A DNA stretch of 64,000 nucleotides from NCBI GenBank assembly GCA_016939335.1, contig JAFGHC010000039.1:2376-66375 (forward strand), read 5' to 3'. The notes below the pieces were generated by a model. That model was not told where the DNA came from, did no database searches, and saw only the letters and a list, made by a program, of their open reading frames with translations. The position numbers and the translations under genes are program-made. This document shows, piece by piece, positions 29 to 64,000 of this stretch; positions within the stretch are counted from its first letter, which is position 1, and every line of letters starts with the position of its first letter. This DNA comes from Candidatus Saganbacteria bacterium (lineage in GTDB: Bacteria; Margulisbacteria; WOR-1; O2-12-FULL-45-9; XYB2-FULL-48-7).

Positions 29-319
29 TTGGTTGCAGCGGGGATATATGATCTGGCGGAAAAACATCCCGAGCTTAAAAAAGTTCCCCGGCGAAAGGCA
101 AAAAGGCAGTCAAACGTGTTTAATATTGTTTACGCTATACTTAGAGACGCTGGGCAAAAACTGACAGCGAGCGAGATACATAATAGAATATTAAAGAACT
201 ATGCCGGCTGTTCCTGGTCACGGCCAGCAGTCGATCTTGTTTTGACGTCAGCAGAACTTCACCAGGGCAACTTTACGGGAAAAGACGGCCGCTTTTGGTT
301 GTCCGGTAAAAAACGATAG
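29..319 (+). CDS. hypothetical protein with HARE-HTH-like winged-helix segment, possibly 5'-partial
   Basis: ORF starts with TTG at 29; the reading frame is open back to base 2, so the gene may begin upstream of the window. The segment IVYAILRDAGQKLTASEIHNRI resembles a HARE-HTH/winged-helix motif. Confidence 0.35.
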   Translation: MVAAGIYDLAEKHPELKKVPRRKAKRQSNVFNIVYAILRDAGQKLTASEIHNRILKNYAGCSWSRPAVDLVLTSAELHQGNFTGKDGRFWLSGKKR

Positions 320-418
320 TATTTTGGCCTCAAATTTTTTCTTACCGTTCACAATCTGCGCTTCTTCATGCGGATGATGGCGAAGGTCAGGCAGGAGATC
401 GCGGCGGGGGAGTTTTAA

Positions 419-491
419 TGGGCCCTATAGGACTCGAACCTATAACCAATCGGTTATGAGCCGATTGCTCTAACCATTGAGCTAAGGGCCC
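419..491 (-). tRNA. tRNA-Met (anticodon CAT); elongator or tRNA-Ile2-type
   Basis: Reverse complement folds as a cloverleaf: GGGCCCT acceptor stem, TAGCTCAATGGTTAGAGC D-arm, anticodon loop CT-CAT-AA, GGTTCGAGTCC T-arm, discriminator A. G1-C72 is paired so it is not the initiator. CCA is not encoded. Confidence 0.85.
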
Positions 492-542
492 TTTTAACTA
501 AAAACAGATAACTTATAACTGATAACCAAATCTTATCACGCC

Positions 543-571
543 TTGACTGACCAGAGCAAGATAAGTAAGAT
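543..571 (+). promoter_or_regulatory. putative sigma70 promoter for the tRNA-Val pair
   Basis: TTGACT (543-548), 17-nt spacer, TAAGAT (566-571), about 40 nt upstream of the tRNA 5' end. Flanked by imperfect inverted repeats ATAACTTATAACTGATAACC / GGTATAAGTTATCGGTTATAAGTT. Confidence 0.3.
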
Positions 572-16646: not shown

Positions 16647-17927
16647 ATGAAGAAAACAATACTTTTAATAACTCATGAGACGCCGGTCGAGCAGGCGGTC
16701 AGAAGTGCGCTGGACGGTTTTAGCATAGAAACAGCCGGCGCCCCCGAAGCCGCCGCTGAAAAGCTGCGCCAGAGCAAGCCCGCCCTCGTCATCCTCGATC
16801 ACGACCTGAAGCAGGACGAGGGCCTCCAGCTCTTCCGCCAGCTCCGGCTGCTGGCGCCCGCCACCGGCTTTATCCTCCTTTCACAGCAGAATGATATCCC
16901 CACCGCGGTGCAGGCGGCCAAGCTCGGCGCGGCCGATTTCCTGCAAAAACCGGCCGGAGCCAAGGCACTGCGGCTCTCCGTCGAGCGGAACCTGGCCGCG
17001 GCCGAAGGATCGGCCCTGGCCGCCGCCGGCCTCCCCTGGCTGCAGGGCGAGAGCCCGGCGCTGAAAAAGATGTTCGAAGCGATCGGCGGCGCGCTGCTGA
17101 CGCGCGCCAGCCTTATTCTGGTGGCGGAGCGGGGGATCGACAAAAGCGATGTGGCCGACTGCATCCACCGGCGCAGTCTCAAGCGCAAAAGCCGCCTGCG
17201 GGTGATCGACCTCGCCTCTTTCCGCCGGGAGGACCTGGAAGGGTCGTTCTGGGCGACGGTGCAGGAGGCGGCGGGGGAGAACCAGGCCGCCGACGAAGAG
17301 GACCGCTGCGGCACGCTTTATCTCGAGAATATCGAAAGTTTGGAAGAGAGCTTCCGCTTGAGCATTTTCGAGTTTTTCAAGGAGAAGAAACCGAAGCTCG
17401 ATCCCGAAGTTCTGATCGTGATCGGCCTCTACGACCCGCATGCTCTGCCGCCCGCGCTGGCCAAACATTACCTGCAGGTGCCGGTCCCGCCGCTCTGCGA
17501 GCGCAGGGGCGACCTGCCGCTTTTGGTCGGCCGCGAGCTGGCGGCGCTCTCGCTCCGGCACGGGAAGAACGTCAACGCTCTCTCCGCCGACCTGCTTTAT
17601 CTTCTCGGTCTTTACGATTTTCCCGGCAATTACCATGAGCTCTCGGCGCTGCTCGAGATCGGCGTGCTGGCGGCCGGCGGCGAGGTGATCGGGCTGGCCG
17701 ACCTGCCGCTCGATTTCCGGACGCTGCTGCAGGCGGCGGTCACCGCGGCGCACGTCAAAGGGGAGTTGAGTTTGGAAGCGGCCCGGCGCTGGCTGGAAAA
17801 GCTGGCTTACAAAACGCTGCTGGCCAAAACGAAGTCCGATCCCGGGGCGGTAGCGCGTTTCCTCGACCTGCCGCGCACGGCGCTGGCCGAGCGGGCGGCC
17901 GAACTAGGCACTGACCTGCTTAATTAA
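16647..17927 (+). CDS. NtrC-family response regulator with a degenerate sigma54-activator ATPase domain and a C-terminal Fis-type HTH
   Basis: REC-like N-terminus (ALVILDHDL). The central domain is AAA+-like, but the Walker A position reads AERGIDKS rather than GESGTGK. C-terminal HTH ARFLDLPRTALAERAAELG. Confidence 0.65.
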   Translation: MKKTILLITHETPVEQAVRSALDGFSIETAGAPEAAAEKLRQSKPALVILDHDLKQDEGLQLFRQLRLLAPATGFILLSQQNDIPTAVQAAKLGAADFLQKPAGAKALRLSVERNLAAAEGSALAAAGLPWLQGESPALKKMFEAIGGALLTRASLILVAERGIDKSDVADCIHRRSLKRKSRLRVIDLASFRREDLEGSFWATVQEAAGENQAADEEDRCGTLYLENIESLEESFRLSIFEFFKEKKPKLDPEVLIVIGLYDPHALPPALAKHYLQVPVPPLCERRGDLPLLVGRELAALSLRHGKNVNALSADLLYLLGLYDFPGNYHELSALLEIGVLAAGGEVIGLADLPLDFRTLLQAAVTAAHVKGELSLEAARRWLEKLAYKTLLAKTKSDPGAVARFLDLPRTALAERAAELGTDLLN

Positions 17928-27614: not shown

Positions 27615-27790
27615 TCTTCAACCACCCAACCCCTCTCCCCCTGGGAGAGGGCGTAAACGACAAAATATTGTATGACGAGAAATTGGGTGAGGGCTGTTCG
27701 CTTCTCCAGCTTCACCGCCTTTCCCCTCTCCCTCTGGGAGAGGGGGGCCGGTTTGTGTAAGCGGGTGAGGGCTGTCTCAAAGTGCCGCTA
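27615..27790. repeat. tandemly duplicated ~85-bp unit, each copy with a CCCCTCTCCC..GGGAGAGGG hairpin and a GGGTGAGGGCTGT motif
   Basis: Hairpins at 27630-27653 and 27723-27747; GGGTGAGGGCTGT at about 27685 and about 27764. Lies between the convergent 27090 gene and gltX. The hairpins are not followed by T-runs. Confidence 0.5.
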
Positions 27791-32740: not shown

Positions 32741-33520
32741 ATGACCGTTCTCGACGATATTATTGCCGACAAGCGCCGGGAAGTCGCCGCCCTCAAGGCC
32801 CGCGGGGGCCCCGGCAAGCTCGAGACGCTGGTCGGTCAGCTTCCCGCCCCGCGAGATTTCCTGGCCGCGCTGCCGCGCGGCAGGATGTCGCTCATCGCCG
32901 AGATCAAGAAAGCTTCCCCTGCGGCCGGCGTGCTGGCGGAGCGGTTCGAGCCGGCCGCTCTCGCCCGGGCTTATGAGGAGGGCGGGGCGGCGGCGCTCTC
33001 GGTCCTGACCGACGGCAAGTATTTCCAGGGGAAGCTCGCTGACCTCAAGGCCGCCAAGGACCCGACCACCATCCCCGTCCTGCGCAAGGACTTCATCATC
33101 GACGAGGCGCAGCTTTATGAATCGCGTATCAACGGCGCCGACGCCGTCCTGCTGATCGCCGCCGTCCTCGCGCCGGCGCAGCTGAAGAATTATCTTGAGC
33201 TTGCGCACCGGCTGCGAATGCCCTGCCTGGTCGAGATCAGGGACGGGGCGGAGGCCGAGCGGGCCCTGAAGGCCGGCGCGCGGCTTATTGGCATCAATAA
33301 CCGCGACCTTAAGACATTTAAAGTGGATTTCAGGACGACCCTGGACCTGCTGGCAAAATATCCGGAACTGAAAAAAAAGGTCATCGTTTCCGAAAGCGGC
33401 ATCATTGCCGCGGAGCAGGTCGGGGAGTTGCGAGCGGCCGGCGTTTCCGCTGTCCTGGTCGGCACCAGCCTCATGACCAGCCCTGACATTGGGAAGAAGA
33501 TAAGGGAACTGTTGGGATGA
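32741..33520 (+). CDS. trpC: indole-3-glycerol phosphate synthase
   Basis: LIAEIKKASPAAGVL (conserved E-K-S-P), VLTDGKYFQG and IGINNRDL motifs. Confidence 0.85.
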   Translation: MTVLDDIIADKRREVAALKARGGPGKLETLVGQLPAPRDFLAALPRGRMSLIAEIKKASPAAGVLAERFEPAALARAYEEGGAAALSVLTDGKYFQGKLADLKAAKDPTTIPVLRKDFIIDEAQLYESRINGADAVLLIAAVLAPAQLKNYLELAHRLRMPCLVEIRDGAEAERALKAGARLIGINNRDLKTFKVDFRTTLDLLAKYPELKKKVIVSESGIIAAEQVGELRAAGVSAVLVGTSLMTSPDIGKKIRELLG

Positions 33521-34560
33521 AAATCCGAAATCCGAAATCAGAAATACGAAATAATTTCGAAATTCGAAATTCGAATTTCCTTCGAATTTCGTTATTCGTA
33601 TTTCGGATTTGCGCGCTCTCATTAGTGGCGGCATCCGCTTTCGCCCTCGGCGAGGTCCCCGCCACTAGCGAAATAATCAACCCGTCGGTCGCTTACGTCC
33701 GGGAGTTCGGTTCGGGCGGCTCCGGTGAGCGCCAGTTCTACTTTCCGCAGGACGTCAGGTCGGCCCAGCTCGGCGACCTCGAGACGGCGCTCAATAATCT
33801 CTATATCGCCGACACCGGCAACAACCGGGTCCAGCGGCTCGACGAGAACGGCGGTTTCGTCTACCAGTTCGGCGGCTTCGGCCACGAGGACGGCAGGTTC
33901 AACACGCCGGTCGGCATCGCCGTCGACTTCAATTTCCGCCTTTATGTTTCGGAAAAAGACAGCGACCGGATCCAGCAGTTCGACATACGCGGCAACTTCC
34001 TCCGCGAGGTCGGCAGCGGCGAGGTCAACCTGCGCGCCCTCCAGGACCCGGCCGGCCTCGACGTCGACTCGCTCGGTTATCTTTACGTCGCCGATTCGGG
34101 CAACGACCGGGTGCTGAAGTTCGATCCCGCGGGCAATTTCGTCAGCGAAGTCGGCGGCTTCGGCATCGGCCCCGGCTTTCTCAACAAGCCGCTCGATGCG
34201 GCGGCCGACCGCGACCGCAACATTTACGTGGCCGACACCGGCAATAACCGGGTCCAGAAGTTCGATTTTGACGGCCGCCCCGTCTTCTCCTTCGGCCGCT
34301 CCGGCGGCGGGCCGGGCGAGCTGTCGGCCCCTTCGGCGCTCGCGGTCGACGACAAGTTCATTTATGTTTCCGACACCGGCAACGACCGCCTCTGCCTTTT
34401 TTCCCGGCAGGGGAAGTTCCTCCTTGCTTTCGGCCAGAAAGGGGCGGGGCCGGGCGAATTCAACGCGCCGCTCGGGCTCAGCCTCGGCCGGCAGGGGCGC
34501 ATTTACGTTGCCGACAGCGGCAATCACCGGATCGTTGAGCTTAGGGTAAAATGGCGCTAA
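33517..34560 (+). CDS. NHL-repeat six-bladed beta-propeller protein (secreted)
   Basis: Six repeats of the DxxGNIYVADTGNNRVQKFD type. ATG at 33517 overlaps the trpC stop. Codons 2-30 run through a family-1 repeat copy; alternative GTG at about 33622 within the hydrophobic segment. Confidence 0.7.
   Translation: MKIRNPKSEIRNNFEIRNSNFLRISLFVFRICALSLVAASAFALGEVPATSEIINPSVAYVREFGSGGSGERQFYFPQDVRSAQLGDLETALNNLYIADTGNNRVQRLDENGGFVYQFGGFGHEDGRFNTPVGIAVDFNFRLYVSEKDSDRIQQFDIRGNFLREVGSGEVNLRALQDPAGLDVDSLGYLYVADSGNDRVLKFDPAGNFVSEVGGFGIGPGFLNKPLDAAADRDRNIYVADTGNNRVQKFDFDGRPVFSFGRSGGGPGELSAPSALAVDDKFIYVSDTGNDRLCLFSRQGKFLLAFGQKGAGPGEFNAPLGLSLGRQGRIYVADSGNHRIVELRVKWR
33522..33610. repeat. family-1 palindromic repeat
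   Basis: AAATCCGAAATCCGAAATCAGAAATACGAAATAATTTCGAAATTCGAAATTCGAATTTCCTTCGAATTTCGTTATTCGTATTTCGGATTT. Confidence 0.7.
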
Positions 34561-38856: not shown

Positions 38857-38890
38857 AAATTCATTATAGCATGGGAAATCACCGCAAATT

Positions 38891-38944
38891 CCACACACTT
38901 TAGTGTGTGGTTTCAATCTTATTCGCTTTGGCCAGATTCTGGGG
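38891..38944. repeat. palindromic hairpin pair CCACACAC-TTTA-GTGTGTGG plus CCAGATTCTGGGG; inverted copy of the element at 62648-62693
   Basis: Perfect 8-bp stem with 4-nt loop. The 26-nt context (AATTCCACACACTTTAGTGTGTGGTTTC) matches the reverse complement of 62644-62670. Lies in the typA/greA divergent region. Confidence 0.6.
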
Positions 38945-60103: not shown

Positions 60104-60870
60104 TGAAATATATTTACGGCCCGGTGCCGTCGTGGCGTCTGGGGCGGTCGCTGGGGGTCGACCTGGTTTCCGGGGATAAAACCTGCTCTTTCGATTGCGT
60201 CTATTGCCAGCTGGGCAAAACGGTCAGGCACTATATCAAGCGCCAGCTTTTTGTCCCGATCGCGGAGATTGTTGAAGAGCTGGAAAGCGTCCCCCGTTTG
60301 AACATCGATTACATCACTTTATCAGGGACCGGAGAGCCGACGCTGGCGCTGAACCTGGGTGACGCCATTGAGAAGATCAAGGGGCATTTCACCAAGCCGG
60401 TGGCGGTTCTGACCAATTCTTCGCTGTTGCACGATTCGCAGGTGAGAAAGGAACTGGGGGCCGCAGACCTGGTCGTAGCCAAGCTGGACGCGCCAAACGA
60501 AGAAATTTTTCATCGTGTCAGCCGGCCATCCGGGGGGATAACCTTTCACATGATCGTGGATGGGATCAAGCGCTTCAATCAGGAATATCCCGGCAAGCTC
60601 GCTTTGCAGATGATGTTCGTGCCGCAAAACAAGGAACACGCGGCGGCCATGGCCCGGCTGGCCAAGGAGATCGGTCCGGTTGAGGTCCAGCTCAATACCC
60701 CCCTGCGGCCCAGCCCGGTCAAACCGCTGACGGTTGAAGAGCTGGCCGAAGTCAAAAAAATATTCCTGGCCGCCGGGCTGGAAAGAGTCTATTCCGTTTA
60801 CGATGTCGAGCGCCCGGAAACGCGGCCGCTCGACGAGAGCGAAACGAGGCGCCGGAGGCCGGAAGCTTGA
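60103..60870 (+). CDS. radical SAM protein (COG0731-like)
   Basis: YGPVPSWRLGRSLGVDLVSGDKTCSFDCVYCQLG: CX3CX2C 30 residues from the N-terminus; 255 aa. Confidence 0.65.
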   Translation: MKYIYGPVPSWRLGRSLGVDLVSGDKTCSFDCVYCQLGKTVRHYIKRQLFVPIAEIVEELESVPRLNIDYITLSGTGEPTLALNLGDAIEKIKGHFTKPVAVLTNSSLLHDSQVRKELGAADLVVAKLDAPNEEIFHRVSRPSGGITFHMIVDGIKRFNQEYPGKLALQMMFVPQNKEHAAAMARLAKEIGPVEVQLNTPLRPSPVKPLTVEELAEVKKIFLAAGLERVYSVYDVERPETRPLDESETRRRRPEA

Positions 60871-62249
60871 TCATCAATGATAAACAAATCGAGTCCTTAT
60901 TGGCCGGAGCAGCCAAATCCGGTCCATCATTAGTCGCTGATATCTTAGCCAAGGCCCGGGAGACTAAAGGGCTGACTCCGGCCGAAACCGCGGTTCTTTT
61001 GCAGTGCGAAGATAAAGGCTTGATCCAGCAGATACTCCAGGCCGCTAAGCATGTGAAAGAAGAAATATATGGCAAGCGGCTGGTCCTTTTTGCCCCGCTT
61101 TACGTGACGAACGAGTGTATTAACAATTGCCTTTATTGCGGTTTTCGCAAGGACAATACCAGTTTAACAAGGAAAACCCTCTCGCTGGACGAACTGGCGG
61201 AAGAAGTTACTATCCTTGAAGATATGGGGCACAAAAGAATCCTGATGGTTTTTGGGGAGCATCCCCGGCATTCGAACATCGATTTCATTGAAAAATCAAT
61301 TGCAAGGGCCTATGCCACCAAGTCAAAAAAGGGAGAAATGCGGCGGATAAATGTGAACCTGGCTCCGCTTTCCCTGGAAGATTTTAAGCGGCTGAAAGCG
61401 GCCAAGATCGGTACCTATCAGGCTTTTCAGGAGACCTACCACCGGGAAACTTATAAATACCTTCATCCTTCAGGCAAAAAAGCCGATTACGACTGGCGGG
61501 TGACCGCTTTTGACCGGGCCCAGCAGGCCGGGATCGATGATATCGGCGCCGGAGTTTTATTTGGCCTGTACGATTATAAATTCGAGGTCCTGGCCCTGCA
61601 GTACCATTCTATGCATCTCGAAAAGGAATATGGGTCCGGCCCGCACACCATTTCCGTCCCACGCCTCGAGCCGGCCTTAAACGCCCCGGCGGCGAATTGC
61701 CCGCCCCATCCCGTTTCTGACGAGGAGTTTAAAAAACTGGTGGCGATCATCCGCCTGGCCGTTCCTTACACCGGCATGATCCTTTCCACCAGGGAAGCGC
61801 CCGCCTTAAGGGATGAGCTGGTCGGCCTGGGCATTTCCCAGCTCTCCGCCGGCTCGCGAACCTATCCCGGCGGGTACAAGGACCAGCTGGCCCATGTCGA
61901 AGTCGAAGAGCAGTTCCAGATCGAAGATACACGGCCGCTCGATCAGGTTATTTATGACCTGTGCAAGATCGGCTATATTCCCAGCTTTTGCACGGCTTGT
62001 TACCGGTTGGGCCGGACCGGGGAAAATTTCATGGGGTTTGCCAAAACCGGCTTTATTCGCAACTTTTGCACCCCCAACGCTTTGCTGACATTTAAAGAAT
62101 ACTTGCTCGACTACGCTTTGCCGGCGACCCGGGAGCTGGGAGAGCGGGTCTTTAAAGAGCACCTGGACAAGTTGCCTGAAAATATCCGCGAAAAAACCTT
62201 GGCCAAGTGCCGGGAACTGGAGGCGGGAGAAAGGGACAGGTATTTCTAG
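60867..62249 (+). CDS. hydG: HydG-like radical SAM enzyme ([FeFe]-hydrogenase H-cluster maturase family; ThiH-related)
   Basis: N-terminal CINNCLYC radical-SAM cluster. C-terminal CTAC-(22 aa)-C (CX2CX22C), which distinguishes HydG from ThiH. 460 aa. Confidence 0.6.
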   Translation: MIINDKQIESLLAGAAKSGPSLVADILAKARETKGLTPAETAVLLQCEDKGLIQQILQAAKHVKEEIYGKRLVLFAPLYVTNECINNCLYCGFRKDNTSLTRKTLSLDELAEEVTILEDMGHKRILMVFGEHPRHSNIDFIEKSIARAYATKSKKGEMRRINVNLAPLSLEDFKRLKAAKIGTYQAFQETYHRETYKYLHPSGKKADYDWRVTAFDRAQQAGIDDIGAGVLFGLYDYKFEVLALQYHSMHLEKEYGSGPHTISVPRLEPALNAPAANCPPHPVSDEEFKKLVAIIRLAVPYTGMILSTREAPALRDELVGLGISQLSAGSRTYPGGYKDQLAHVEVEEQFQIEDTRPLDQVIYDLCKIGYIPSFCTACYRLGRTGENFMGFAKTGFIRNFCTPNALLTFKEYLLDYALPATRELGERVFKEHLDKLPENIREKTLAKCRELEAGERDRYF

Positions 62250-62250
62250 T

Positions 62251-62568
62251 ATGGATAAGATCAAACATAAAATAATGGTCATGAGCAATAAAGGGGGCGT
62301 CGGTAAAAGCACCGTGTCCGTCAACCTGGCCTTTGGCTTGAGCGAGCAGGGCAAAAAAGTCGGGCTCCTCGACGCCGATCTGCACGGGCCGAGCCTGGCG
62401 AAAATGAGCGGCTCACAGGGCAATCTGCTCTCCGCCCGGGAGGGGAGGATCGCGCCCTTGGAAATGGGCGGGAACATGAAAATTGTCAGTTTAGCTTTAT
62501 TGTTCGGCCGGCAAGACGAGCCCATTATCTGGCGCGGCCCGCTAAAAATGAAAGCGATCAAACAATGA
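62251..62568 (+). pseudogene. Mrp/ApbC/NBP35-family ATPase, truncated after 105 codons
   Basis: MVMSNKGGVGKSTVSVNLAFGL P-loop and IIWRGPLKMKAIKQ match the Mrp family. Reading frame terminates at TGA 62566. The following about 190 bp is a hairpin-rich element, not coding. Confidence 0.55.
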
Positions 62569-62570
62569 AA

Positions 62571-62760
62571 AGATATCCCCGCCGCTTGCGGCGCGGGTAC
62601 CTTATGGTGGCCGAAGGGGTAAGGGGCAATAAAGAAAGGGTTTGGAACCACACACTAAAGTGTGTGGAATATTCCCCAGACTTTAGTCTGGGGTTACAGC
62701 CAAAAAACAGGAGAAGAAACGTGAAAGCTAAAGATACCCCACCGCTTGCGGTGGGGAGTT
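62571..62760. repeat. hairpin-rich element with two terminal CCCC(A/G)CCGCTTGCGG(T/C)GGGG hairpins flanking two internal palindromes (H2, H3)
   Basis: H1 62577-62597 imperfect. H2 CCACACAC-TAAA-GTGTGTGG 62648-62667. H3 CCCCAGAC-TTTA-GTCTGGGG 62674-62693. H4 CCCCACCGC-TTGC-GGTGGGG 62737-62756. H2 plus flank is an inverted copy of 38891-38910. Confidence 0.6.
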
Positions 62761-63081
62761 AGGTCATTTAGCAAGGGGCAGGGGAATTTCGAGGCCTTAT
62801 CGGATGAGGAGCGGCCGATCTTTTTTATGTTCAAGGTCAAATGCCCGGTCATCGGCAAAGATGTCAAAGGGGAAATGGGCGAAGCGGTCCTAAAAGCCCA
62901 TGCTTACCGTGACTAAGGCGGGGAGCGCGGTCCCGCTGGCGAAGAATGCGGCCAAAGCGCCGACGGCCGAGCTGCCGTACCCGGGCAAAATCTTCGGCCC
63001 GGTCGTTTCGGTCAACGCTTGCCGTCGCTTCGAGCGGGCCGAAGGCCGTTGCCGGGCGGTTCATAAAACGGAGGGAAAAAG

Positions 63082-63936
63082 ATGATCATCGCGGTCGCTT
63101 CGGGGAAAGGCGGGACCGGCAAGACGCTGGTCGCGACCTCGCTGGCCCTGTCCCTCGGCCAGAACGTCCAGCTGCTCGATTGCGACGTGGAGGAGCCGAA
63201 CGCAGCCATTTTTATCAAACCAAAGATCGAACAGAGTATGACGGCTTCCGTTCCGGTCCCGACGGTCGATGAAAGCAAGTGCGACTATTGCGGTAAATGC
63301 GCCGAAGTTTGTGAATACCACGCCATCGTGGTCGCGAAGAATAAAGTCTTGATCTTTCCCGAGCTTTGCCATAGTTGCGGCGCGTGCACGCTGCTTTGTC
63401 CGCGGCAGGCGATAACCGAGCGGGAACGGGTTATCGGCCGGATCGACATTGGTCATAAAGAGGGGCTCAGGTTCGTCCAGGGGTGCCTTAATGTCGGCGA
63501 AGCGATATCGCCGCCGCTGATCAGGCGGGTTAAAGAGTTGATCGATCCCGGGCGTACGGTGATCATCGATTCGCCGCCGGGAACATCATGTCCGGTCATT
63601 GCCGCGGTTAAAGGATGCGATTTTTGCCTGTTAGTGACCGAGCCGACCCCATTCGGCTTGAATGACCTGGTTTTGGCGGTGGAGACGGTCCGCAAGCTTG
63701 GGATCCCGTTCGGCGTGATCATTAACCGCGCCGACCTGGGAGATAATAAGACGGAAGAGTACTGCGCGGCGGAAAATATCCCGGTGCTGTTAAGGATCCC
63801 GTTCAAAAAAGAGATCGCGGAGGCGTATGCAAAAGGGACCGCGGCCGTTGAGATAATGCCGGAATGCGGGCCAAAGTTCAGGGGAGCGTTCGAGGCGGCC
63901 GGCAGGATCGTTGAGCGGCGAGGCGGGAAAACGTGA
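63082..63936 (+). CDS. MinD/ParA-superfamily P-loop ATPase with an inserted 2x[4Fe-4S] ferredoxin domain (CooC-like)
   Basis: MIIAVASGKGGTGKT P-loop, two CxxCxxCxxxC ferredoxin motifs (CDYCGKCAEVCE, CHSCGACTLLCP), then DSPPGTSCPVIAAV. RBS AACGGAGGGAAAAAG. Confidence 0.7.
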   Translation: MIIAVASGKGGTGKTLVATSLALSLGQNVQLLDCDVEEPNAAIFIKPKIEQSMTASVPVPTVDESKCDYCGKCAEVCEYHAIVVAKNKVLIFPELCHSCGACTLLCPRQAITERERVIGRIDIGHKEGLRFVQGCLNVGEAISPPLIRRVKELIDPGRTVIIDSPPGTSCPVIAAVKGCDFCLLVTEPTPFGLNDLVLAVETVRKLGIPFGVIINRADLGDNKTEEYCAAENIPVLLRIPFKKEIAEAYAKGTAAVEIMPECGPKFRGAFEAAGRIVERRGGKT

Positions 63937-64000
63937 AAGCTAAAAGAGCGGTCGAACATTTTATCGGGAGAGGGGGGCGGGGGCGGCTTAATTGCGCGCA

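Follow-up and report, generated by a model that had tools for sequence, protein, structure and literature searches.

IS200, IS608 and ISDra2 are biochemically and structurally studied members of the IS200/IS605 family of insertion sequences (IS). Palindrome-associated transposable elements (PATEs) belong to the same family (PMC3119063, PMC7290912, PMC10055086) and are known from Haloquadratum walsbyi (PMC3119063), from Halanaerobium hydrogeniformans (PMC7290912) and, as PATE-like elements of ISGst, from Geobacillus stearothermophilus (PMC10055086). Transposition by TnpA depends on hairpins in single-stranded DNA (ssDNA), with excision as a circle and insertion 3' of a short motif without target duplication (PMC7290912). 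Here we describe an element of 206 bp in a 64,000-nucleotide stretch of Candidatus Saganbacteria DNA (contig JAFGHC010000039.1; the window), where it stands between the 5' stump of an Mrp-type Fe-S carrier gene (mrp) and the 3' fragment of a gene of the DUF89 family (Table 1). With a probability of about 0.8, we read it as a transposase-less derivative of an IS200-type IS, that is, a PATE or miniature inverted-repeat transposable element (MITE), which marks a deletion of ~1.2 kb in a formerly contiguous gene block.

The element resembles described PATEs in being short (~130-270 bp) and geneless and in keeping just the hairpin-bearing ends, left (LE) and right (RE), of an IS with a Y1/HUH TnpA; no target duplication is visible at its flanks, where one could have been lost, and, as with PATEs, mobilisation in trans is presumed. 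It differs in its end sequences and in its parent, a very compact, tnpA-only IS of 589 bp with a TnpA that shares no more than 48% identity with annotated plasmid-borne TnpAs. It also differs in carrying a doublet of a second hairpin family, similar to repetitive extragenic palindromes (REPs), in place of tnpA, and in lying at a deletion junction instead of a clean insertion, with a target motif that the three available flanks do not define. The tnpA-bearing relative is built like IS200 (Salmonella), IS608 and ISDra2, with an LE hairpin, tnpA (149 aa, HUH and Tyr motifs) and an RE hairpin, both hairpins subterminal, whereas the window element has no tnpA and its end sequences are unrelated to theirs. 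Its short conserved right terminus, of the TTCATT type, may be the analogue of the IS608 RE cleavage motif.

Table 1. Position and description of the element, its parts, the surrounding genes and a solitary hairpin of the inner family (window coordinates).
Feature	Position	Strand	Description
Non-autonomous IS200/IS605-family element (PATE/MITE; assignment probable)	62564-62769	+	206 bp; left end, hairpin doublet, right end; homology to L237 and L127
Left end (LE)	62564-62632	+	69 nt; subterminal hairpin 1 and homology to the L237 LE
Hairpin 1 (LE)	62577-62597	+	CCCCGCCGC-TT-GCGGCGcGGG; 9 bp, one bulged C
Internal inverted doublet	62643-62698	+	REP-like hairpins at the place of tnpA; also in the L127 copy
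Inner palindrome 1	62648-62667	+	CCACACAC-TAAA-GTGTGTGG
Inner palindrome 2	62674-62693	+	CCCCAGAC-TTTA-GTCTGGGG; compensated, inverted variant of palindrome 1
Right end (RE)	62729-62769	+	41 nt; AAAGATA, hairpin 2 and AGTTAGGTCATTT
Hairpin 2 (RE)	62737-62756	+	CCCCACCGC-TT-GCGGTGGGG; perfect 9 bp
hydG, [FeFe]-hydrogenase radical S-adenosylmethionine (SAM) maturase	60867-62249	+	intact; TIGR03955 rSAM_HydG, 534.5 bits (cutoff 312)
mrp 5' stump (Mrp/MrpORP-type Fe-S carrier ATPase)	62251-62568	+	105 aa; codons 1-105 intact
DUF89/ARMT1-like 3' fragment	62770-62916	+	begins SKGQGNFEALSDEERPIFFMFKVKCPVIGKDV; homology to ~62892; stop 62914-62916
SAM-dependent methyltransferase, in-frame remnant	62900-63085	+	61-codon open reading frame (ORF); blastn/tblastn to L003 and L245
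MinD/ParA-type ATPase, 2x[4Fe-4S] insert	63082-63936	+	intact; orthologues 77-88% aa identity, same position in relatives
Solitary inner-family hairpin	38888-38914	+	ATTCCACACACTTTAGTGTGTGGTTTC, inverse orientation; typA/greA divergent intergenic region; not part of the element

End modules and their tnpA-bearing relatives

At each end, the element is homologous to the corresponding end of an IS that still has its transposase gene. This IS, on metagenome contig L237, is 589 bp long, starts AATGAAAGAAATCCCCGCCGCTTGCGGCGCGGGTTACCTTATGGTGGCCGAAGGGGTA... and ends ...AAAGATACCCCACCGCTTGCGGTGGGGAGTTAGGTCATTT. Its LE (1460-1530) lies directly 5' of tnpA (1540-1989), and its RE follows 22 nt after the tnpA stop and runs to 2048. 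The encoded protein matches Pfam Y1_Tnp (PF01797) at 117.9 bits and the NCBIfam model transpos_IS200 (NF033573) at 131.9 bits against a cutoff of 55, contains the HUH motif (DHVHVF) and the tyrosine motif RYIENQ, and has its nearest solved structures in 2EC2, 2F4F, 2XM3 (ISDra2) and 2A6M (IS608). The left 69 nt of the window element are identical to the L237 LE in 65 of 72 aligned columns (90%), and the RE is identical in 40 of 41 nt, down to the terminal motif ...GGTCATTT. In each end the hairpin is subterminal, 13 nt from its own terminus, and the two termini form a short inverted symmetry, AATGA...TCATT. These homologies set the extent of the element, which the earlier note on this DNA had drawn as 62571-62760 and which is here corrected to 62564-62769; the two outer hairpins and the enclosed palindromes listed in that note are all present.

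Between the ends, the element is geneless. Its sole internal ORF (65 aa) is without a Pfam match, and tblastn with the two Y1 transposases of L127 and L237 returned nothing significant inside it. L127, another metagenome contig, carries a second geneless copy at an unrelated locus, again arranged as LE, doublet and RE (blastn, 79% over 159 nt, E 3e-23). Comparison of the two copies reveals four compensatory pair changes in three hairpins, among them the stems of the inner doublet, so that stem pairing is kept, whereas the sequence between the hairpins is only weakly conserved. Adjacent to this copy, L127 carries a gene for a 130-aa Y1 transposase (174-566, minus strand), preceded by CCCCACAATGAATTGTGGGG and followed by the geneless element 10 nt after its stop; two nested families of hairpin transposons are a possible explanation of this arrangement. 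The L127 protein scores 65.7 bits with the IS200 model (cutoff 55).

The end modules belong to a larger family. A scan of metagenomes for the end hairpin with its GATA flank found at least 120 stretches (loci L122-L241), with the consensus TTGATACCCCRCCGCTTGCGGYGGGGnnnTTCATT and unrelated flanks beyond it. Homology ends after TTCATT, and TCAT lies within 16 nt 3' of the hairpin in 76 of 112 relatives; the RE terminal motif TTCATT/GTCATTT is well supported. At the R/Y position of the stem, the 112 relatives show G-C in 85, A-T in 21, A.C in 4 and G.T in 2 (6 mismatched). An IS200 tnpA stands directly beside the end hairpin in 11 of the loci, and others are geneless two-hairpin units of ~130 bp in intergenic DNA (e.g. 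L134 7779-7905). A large subgroup has an extra upstream sequence of ~70 nt, TGAATGGCGAGGCGAACCGCGCCGAAGCTC...GGCGGAATTCCGCTT, and forms geneless two-hairpin elements of ~130 bp. A scan of viral contigs with the LE hairpin gave 0 matches, and a literature search for the four hairpin sequences found no paper containing them. The element family is not yet described.

We built a covariance model (R1) on 70 hairpin modules from metagenomes, leaving the window out; it finds exactly two sites in the window, both on the + strand: 62566-62611 (31.6 bits, E 1.9e-6) and 62727-62771 (42 bits, E 1.8e-9). By pattern alone, the outer hairpin has 3 matches in the window against 0.26 expected in shuffles; an apparent third end-hairpin copy, at 16893, is a coincidence inside a response-regulator gene and has no R1 match. 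For the inner palindromes the shuffles predict 0.00 matches.

A 216-nt stretch over the element folds far better than its shuffles on both strands (z = -5.3 on +, -6.3 on -), and this stability, together with stem-preserving compensatory changes and the omega-RNAs often encoded by PATEs of the TnpB/IscB type (PMC10055086), is what could be expected of a structured noncoding RNA gene, either a small RNA or one like a guide RNA, with the truncation of the genes around it incidental. The same idea had been offered in the earlier note as an alternative and finds no support, as the Rfam search that was to check it returned no family. With Rfam 15, the whole window yields tRNAs only at the gathering threshold; between 62400 and 63200, relaxing the limit to E <= 10 yields chance-level matches only, the best of them to mir-762 (24 bits against 80, E 0.75). 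A promoter and terminator scan gave nothing above chance, and no promoter-like site was found in 62200-63200. Moreover, the L237 relative is tnpA-only and has no guide RNA of tnpB or iscB to retain, DNA hairpins bound by TnpA predict the conservation of stems equally well, and the sequence between the hairpins has drifted between the window and L127 copies. We give an RNA gene very little probability. A GC profile revealed no compositional break.

Two further identities were tried and rejected. A CRISPR-like mini-array is ruled out because the repeats are 160 nt apart and single copies occur elsewhere, and because the flanks are homologues of IS ends. The GTTAGGT 3' of hairpin 2 fits the GTTRRRY core of an integron attC site; an inverse core site is absent, however, and the motif belongs to the conserved RE.

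The window also contains an exact 16-nt repeat, AAACGTGAAAGCTAAA, at 62717-62732 and 63929-63944. The first copy is inside the element, just 5' of the RE and with AGGAG before it; the second covers both the MinD/Fer4 stop and the GTG with which a C_GCAxxG_C_C gene starts. BLAST assigns the pair an E value of 0.005, shuffles predict zero such repeats, and neither L127 nor L237 has it.

The conserved end module GATACCCCRCCGCTTGCGGYGGGG(N3-9)TCATT could be used to annotate similar geneless elements in environmental assemblies, where elements with this module also break contigs. As a worked example, the locus pairs an IS200-type PATE from a candidate phylum with an identified autonomous parent, and the findings leave the current understanding of the IS200/IS605 family unchanged.

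The deletion junction between mrp and DUF89

To read the history of the locus, we compared the gene neighbourhoods in which orthologues of the MinD/Fer4 ATPase downstream are found. The fullest arrangement is that of L245, with HydG (85% aa identity), Mrp of 257 aa, DUF89/ARMT1 of 295 aa, a 213-aa gene, an M24 peptidase, a methyltransferase of 203 aa and MinD (77% aa identity). L004/L005 have Mrp of 250 aa, the 213-aa gene, the methyltransferase and MinD, and are without DUF89 and M24; L003 (88%) has HydG, the methyltransferase and MinD; in L244, HydG is directly followed by MinD. None of the loci of these relatives contains a hairpin of either type, so the corresponding sites are empty. Relative to L245, the element occupies the place of Mrp codons 106-257 and DUF89 codons 1-247 (L245 1196-2391, ~1.2 kb).

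The two breakpoints coincide with the element's ends. Mrp homology stops at 62565/6 and DUF89 homology starts at 62770, both exactly at the termini that L237 and L127 define. With a slash marking the breakpoint, the left junction reads ...ATCAAGCAA/TTTGTC in L245 and ...ATCAAACAA/TGAAAAGATATCCCC in the window, and the right junction ...GAGCTGATCATC/AGCAAAGGCCAG in L245 and ...GTTAGGTCATTT/AGCAAGGGGCAG in the window. AAT is common to the left breakpoint and the LE start, and TCAT to the right breakpoint and the RE terminus; the DUF89 gene of L245 reads GATCATC at the right breakpoint. The flanks, ..ATCAAACA on the left and AGCAAGGGG.. on the right, have no direct repeat in common; they come from two different genes, and a duplication could have been lost. 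As judged from these alignments, the element is the junction of a ~1.2-kb deletion and not a plain insertion. A second deletion, of ~1.0-1.8 kb, joined the tail of DUF89 to a point in the middle of the methyltransferase gene, and no trace of the 213-aa and M24 genes is left in the window locus.

The left-hand gene was cut cleanly. As the earlier note had seen, its frame is good through the P-loop and the WRGP motif before it meets a TGA; the 105-aa ORF and its N-terminal Pfam and NCBIfam matches bear this out. The stump has a deviant Walker A P-loop (KGGVGKS) and WRGP, is intact from the P-loop to WRGPLKMKAIKQ and ends ...IIWRGPLKMKAIKQ*, i.e. PLKMKAIKQ and then a TGA (62566-62568) that is contributed by the element's first bases. 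It covers positions 1-102 of 246 of Pfam ParA/NUBPL (E 5.5e-36) and 1-105 of 365 of NCBIfam MrpORP, where it scores 135 bits (cutoff 450). The stump (62251-62565) aligns with residues 1-105 of the intact Mrp proteins of L245 (257 aa, 74% identity) and L004 (250 aa, 65%). Those relatives, of 250-257 aa, have DSPPGTGDE and CPxCG, and homologues run on past the end of the stump with F(L/V)xxVxWGxLDYLxxDxPPGTGDEP. The stump lacks the Walker B motif (DxPPGTGD) and the C-terminal half with its CxxC ligands and so falls short of a complete Mrp/NBP35/ApbC domain. Alignment to these intact orthologues, which had been proposed as a check, thus places the loss beyond residue 105. The expectation that no frame resumes Mrp after the element also proved correct: tblastn with the intact Mrp of two relatives recovered residues 1-105 only, and no frameshifted continuation exists. 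The string CPVIGKDV was considered as a decayed CPxCG motif and rejected, since the match has an E of 0.39 only and the stretch is the DUF89 tail. Public annotation enters the 105-aa stump as a protein, 'P-loop NTPase' (P0001); it and the small ORFs 3' of it should be treated and flagged as pseudogene fragments.

To the right of the element lies the DUF89 tail (62770-62892), followed by the methyltransferase remnant. The DUF89 fragment comprises the last 41-43 codons of its gene and matches positions 267-311 of 311 of Pfam PF01937 (E 2.7e-7, 30.5 bits against a cutoff of 25); window 62767-62895 is 67% identical to DUF89 residues 247-289 of L245. A search for close homologues with this fragment found short, split DUF89 ORFs on unrelated contigs only and was uninformative.

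The proposal in the earlier note was that a gene had been disrupted by a non-autonomous structured element. Disruption and non-autonomy are supported, because the ends are homologous to those of the L237 IS, the element is geneless, a second copy exists on L127 and the relatives' sites are empty. A plain insertion is not what the locus shows: the element marks a deletion junction, and DUF89 sequence was lost along with that of mrp.

These observations are consistent with a mechanism modelled on characterised family members. The LE and RE hairpins, with the terminal GGTCATTT, would have been kept as ssDNA hairpins for a Y1/HUH TnpA, the REP-like doublet taking the place of tnpA. By analogy with IS608 and ISDra2, a TnpA dimer would bind both end hairpins on the same strand while the DNA there is transiently single-stranded, cut out the element as a circle and place it, with no duplication, 3' of a short target motif. 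As the element is geneless, the TnpA would have to come from another copy, i.e. it would act in trans from elsewhere. The deletion may then have arisen by one of two routes: (a) mrp and DUF89 could each have carried a copy, the two in the same orientation, and homologous recombination between them would have removed the intervening DNA, or (b) next to a single copy, a deletion could have extended to the TCAT site in DUF89 through the action of TnpA or through microhomology. Both routes fit, and we make no choice between them. Mrp ends after codon 105 on the left of the element and DUF89 resumes at about codon 248 on its right, and the methyltransferase gene carries two further in-frame deletions. 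In sum, a dispensable paralogue of Mrp has been lost as a functional gene, and so have its neighbours, with hydG and the MinD-like genes left intact; as gene decay caused by a mobile element, this is ordinary in kind.

Since the hairpins are repeated sequences, we also considered that the contig of the metagenome-assembled genome (MAG) joins two loci through them, so that the juxtaposition of the Mrp stump, the element and DUF89 is unreal. The Logan assembly, made independently from the same run, has one contig that ends at 62604, in the LE, and a next one that starts at 62732, at the RE. Such breaks are expected of a de Bruijn assembler if the sample contains several copies of these ends. Both outer junctions, that of Mrp with the LE and that of the RE with DUF89, the methyltransferase remnant and MinD, are nonetheless present at 100% identity in the Logan contigs, and these contigs are the expected neighbours (HydG-Mrp and methyltransferase-MinD-C_GCAxxG-MinD; compare L245, L004 and L003). 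The internal join of LE, doublet and RE recurs in the unrelated metagenome contig L127, and even with a wrong join mrp would be truncated by the LE and DUF89 by the RE. An assembly artefact is therefore, in our estimate, very improbable.

Several points weigh against reading the element as an IS200 derivative at a deletion junction. Its central 127 nt (62605-62731) are present in the MAG contig only and are missing from the two Logan contigs. The terminal symmetry AATGA...TCATT is foreign to the classical description of the family, and the 16-nt repeat inside the element is not explained by an origin from IS200. Neither a Y1 transposase gene nor a second copy of the end hairpins was found within the 64-kb window. 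For this subfamily three left flanks are available (ACAAT, TTAAT and ATAAT); they share ..AAT only and do not define a target motif (TAM). Finally, the right flank is DUF89 and not Mrp, so that an insertion event into mrp cannot be reconstructed, and we infer the deletion mechanism.

The inner hairpin family

The inner palindromes are not confined to the element. Three inner-type hairpins occur in the window against 0.04 expected. The solitary one is identical in 25 of 25 nt to 62646-62670 on the opposite strand, with its core hairpin at 38891-38910. This typA/bipA-greA hairpin, with its flanks ATTCC...GGTTTCAATC, is the same in Saganbacteria DeMMO3_43 (L025 1383-1412), where it stands beside a partner hairpin. 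Inverted doublets of the family also occur in the intergenic DNA of two other Saganbacteria (L025 and L046), and in L127 an inner-type hairpin precedes the second Y1 gene.

In this behaviour the inner hairpins look REP/REPIN-like. Systems of REPs, REP doublets (REPINs) and REP-associated tyrosine transposases (RAYT; NF047646) have, to our knowledge, so far been described in bacteria. The inner palindromes, of ~20 nt, are like them in that several Saganbacteria have them in intergenic DNA, either alone or paired as inverted doublets, and in that they flank a Y1 transposase gene in L127. They differ in that the Y1 proteins score as IS200 and below the RAYT cutoff, that their density in the window is low, and that the same 20-mer is the core of a 120-nt, high-copy repeat of DPANN archaea.

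From this behaviour one could suppose that the whole structure is not IS-derived, and that it is a host-resident cluster of palindromes, of the REP or bacterial interspersed mosaic element (BIME) type, which gathered in dead DNA and either depends on a single-copy RAYT-like Y1 transposase for its mobilisation or maintenance or serves a structural or terminator role. The solitary typA/greA copy, the doublets of L025 and L046 and the L127 arrangement, with an inner-family hairpin before the 130-aa Y1 gene and the element after it, speak for this supposition, as does the fact that hairpin 2 on the minus strand is the region's only terminator-like site. The outer modules, however, are homologous over 69 and 41 nt, beyond their hairpins, to the ends of a compact tnpA-bearing IS, and the L127 and L237 proteins pass the IS200 cutoff and miss that of RAYT (40.2 and 23.1 bits against 80). 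The window has no RAYT-clade Y1 gene flanked by REPs, and the three inner and two outer hairpins in 64 kb are far below a REP-like density. Slow accumulation in decayed DNA also does not fit a clean 105-codon Mrp frame that ends at the LE boundary. We consider a resident palindrome cluster decidedly improbable and retain the IS200 derivative as the preferred reading.

The inner 20-mer CCACACACTTTAGTGTGTGG occurs in at least 113 stretches of GTDB species representatives (loci L009-L121), and among the matches listed nearly all carriers are DPANN archaea (Woesearchaeota, Nanoarchaeota, Pacearchaeota and Archaeon BMS3Abin17). It is often found at contig ends (e.g. L010 133-152 and 1586-1605; L084; L085). 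Archaeon BMS3Abin17 has 15 copies of a two-module unit of 120 nt, with the hairpin between TTATGCCAAGGATTCTGGAGAAAA and ATGAATCCTTGGACATCCTAAAGTCCAAACAAACCGCACCTTTTAAGGTGCGGTAAAACACAAGGACTTTTTGAT, and its motif of hairpin and ATGAAT resembles the LE-type modules of the bacterial family. The DPANN 20-mer and 120-nt unit have no Rfam match, and a literature search found no paper with the sequence. Taken together, these matches suggest that Y1-type hairpin elements of both domains form a large set not yet described. An unlikely extension of this idea is that LE, doublet and RE form a distinct, now-mobile chimera whose inner hairpin (CCACACAC-TTTA-GTGTGTGG) would be the substrate of a second Y1 lineage common to Saganbacteria and DPANN. 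If that were true, the window would show a single trace of a family of hairpin transposons, so far undescribed, that crosses the domains in lineages that are ultra-small or uncultured, and such elements might also be exapted, e.g. as transcription or replication structures.

Neighbouring genes and other repeats

Upstream of the mrp stump, the window's hydG is 85% identical at the amino acid level to the partial upstream gene of L245. Downstream of the DUF89 tail, the 61-codon ORF that the earlier note had correctly placed 5' of the MinD-like gene, and had left without an identity, proves to be a methyltransferase remnant by alignment to L003 and L245. Blastn aligns 62961-63020 with L003 1339-1400 (85%) and 63030-63100 with L003 1599-1669 (84.5%), pieces that take in the last codons of the L003 methyltransferase and its ATGA overlap with MinD. 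By tblastn, three segments of the L003 methyltransferase, residues 75-96, 109-133 and 194-211, align with the ORF in frame, and residues 99-125 of the L245 protein correspond to window 62957-63037. At least three deletions have removed ~70% of the gene, yet the remnant keeps one frame from its ATG to the original stop and retains the ATGA stop/start overlap with the MinD-like gene. This may be chance or, more speculatively, may reflect selection for translational coupling into that gene.

The relatives suggest that the accessory genes of this ORP-like Fe-S cluster locus, which extends from hydG/radical-SAM to the MinD/Fer4 pair, have been lost repeatedly. The locus records a stepwise loss of the accessory Mrp-DUF89-methyltransferase block, which is kept in L245, partly lost in L003 and entirely lost in L244.

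Other repeats were noted elsewhere in the window. At 27631-27651 and 27723-27745 lie two intergenic copies of CCCCTCTCCC(C/T)CTGGGAGAGGG(G), 92 nt apart and each followed by GGGTGAGGGCTGT; the motif CCCTCTCCC...GGGAGAGGG..GGGTGAGGGG of 27631-27745 is also found beside GATACCCC hairpins in the metagenome loci L187 and L229. AT-rich palindromes of AAATTCGAAATTTCG-type units occupy two intergenic sites, 946-978 and 33520-33608, the second ~90 nt long.

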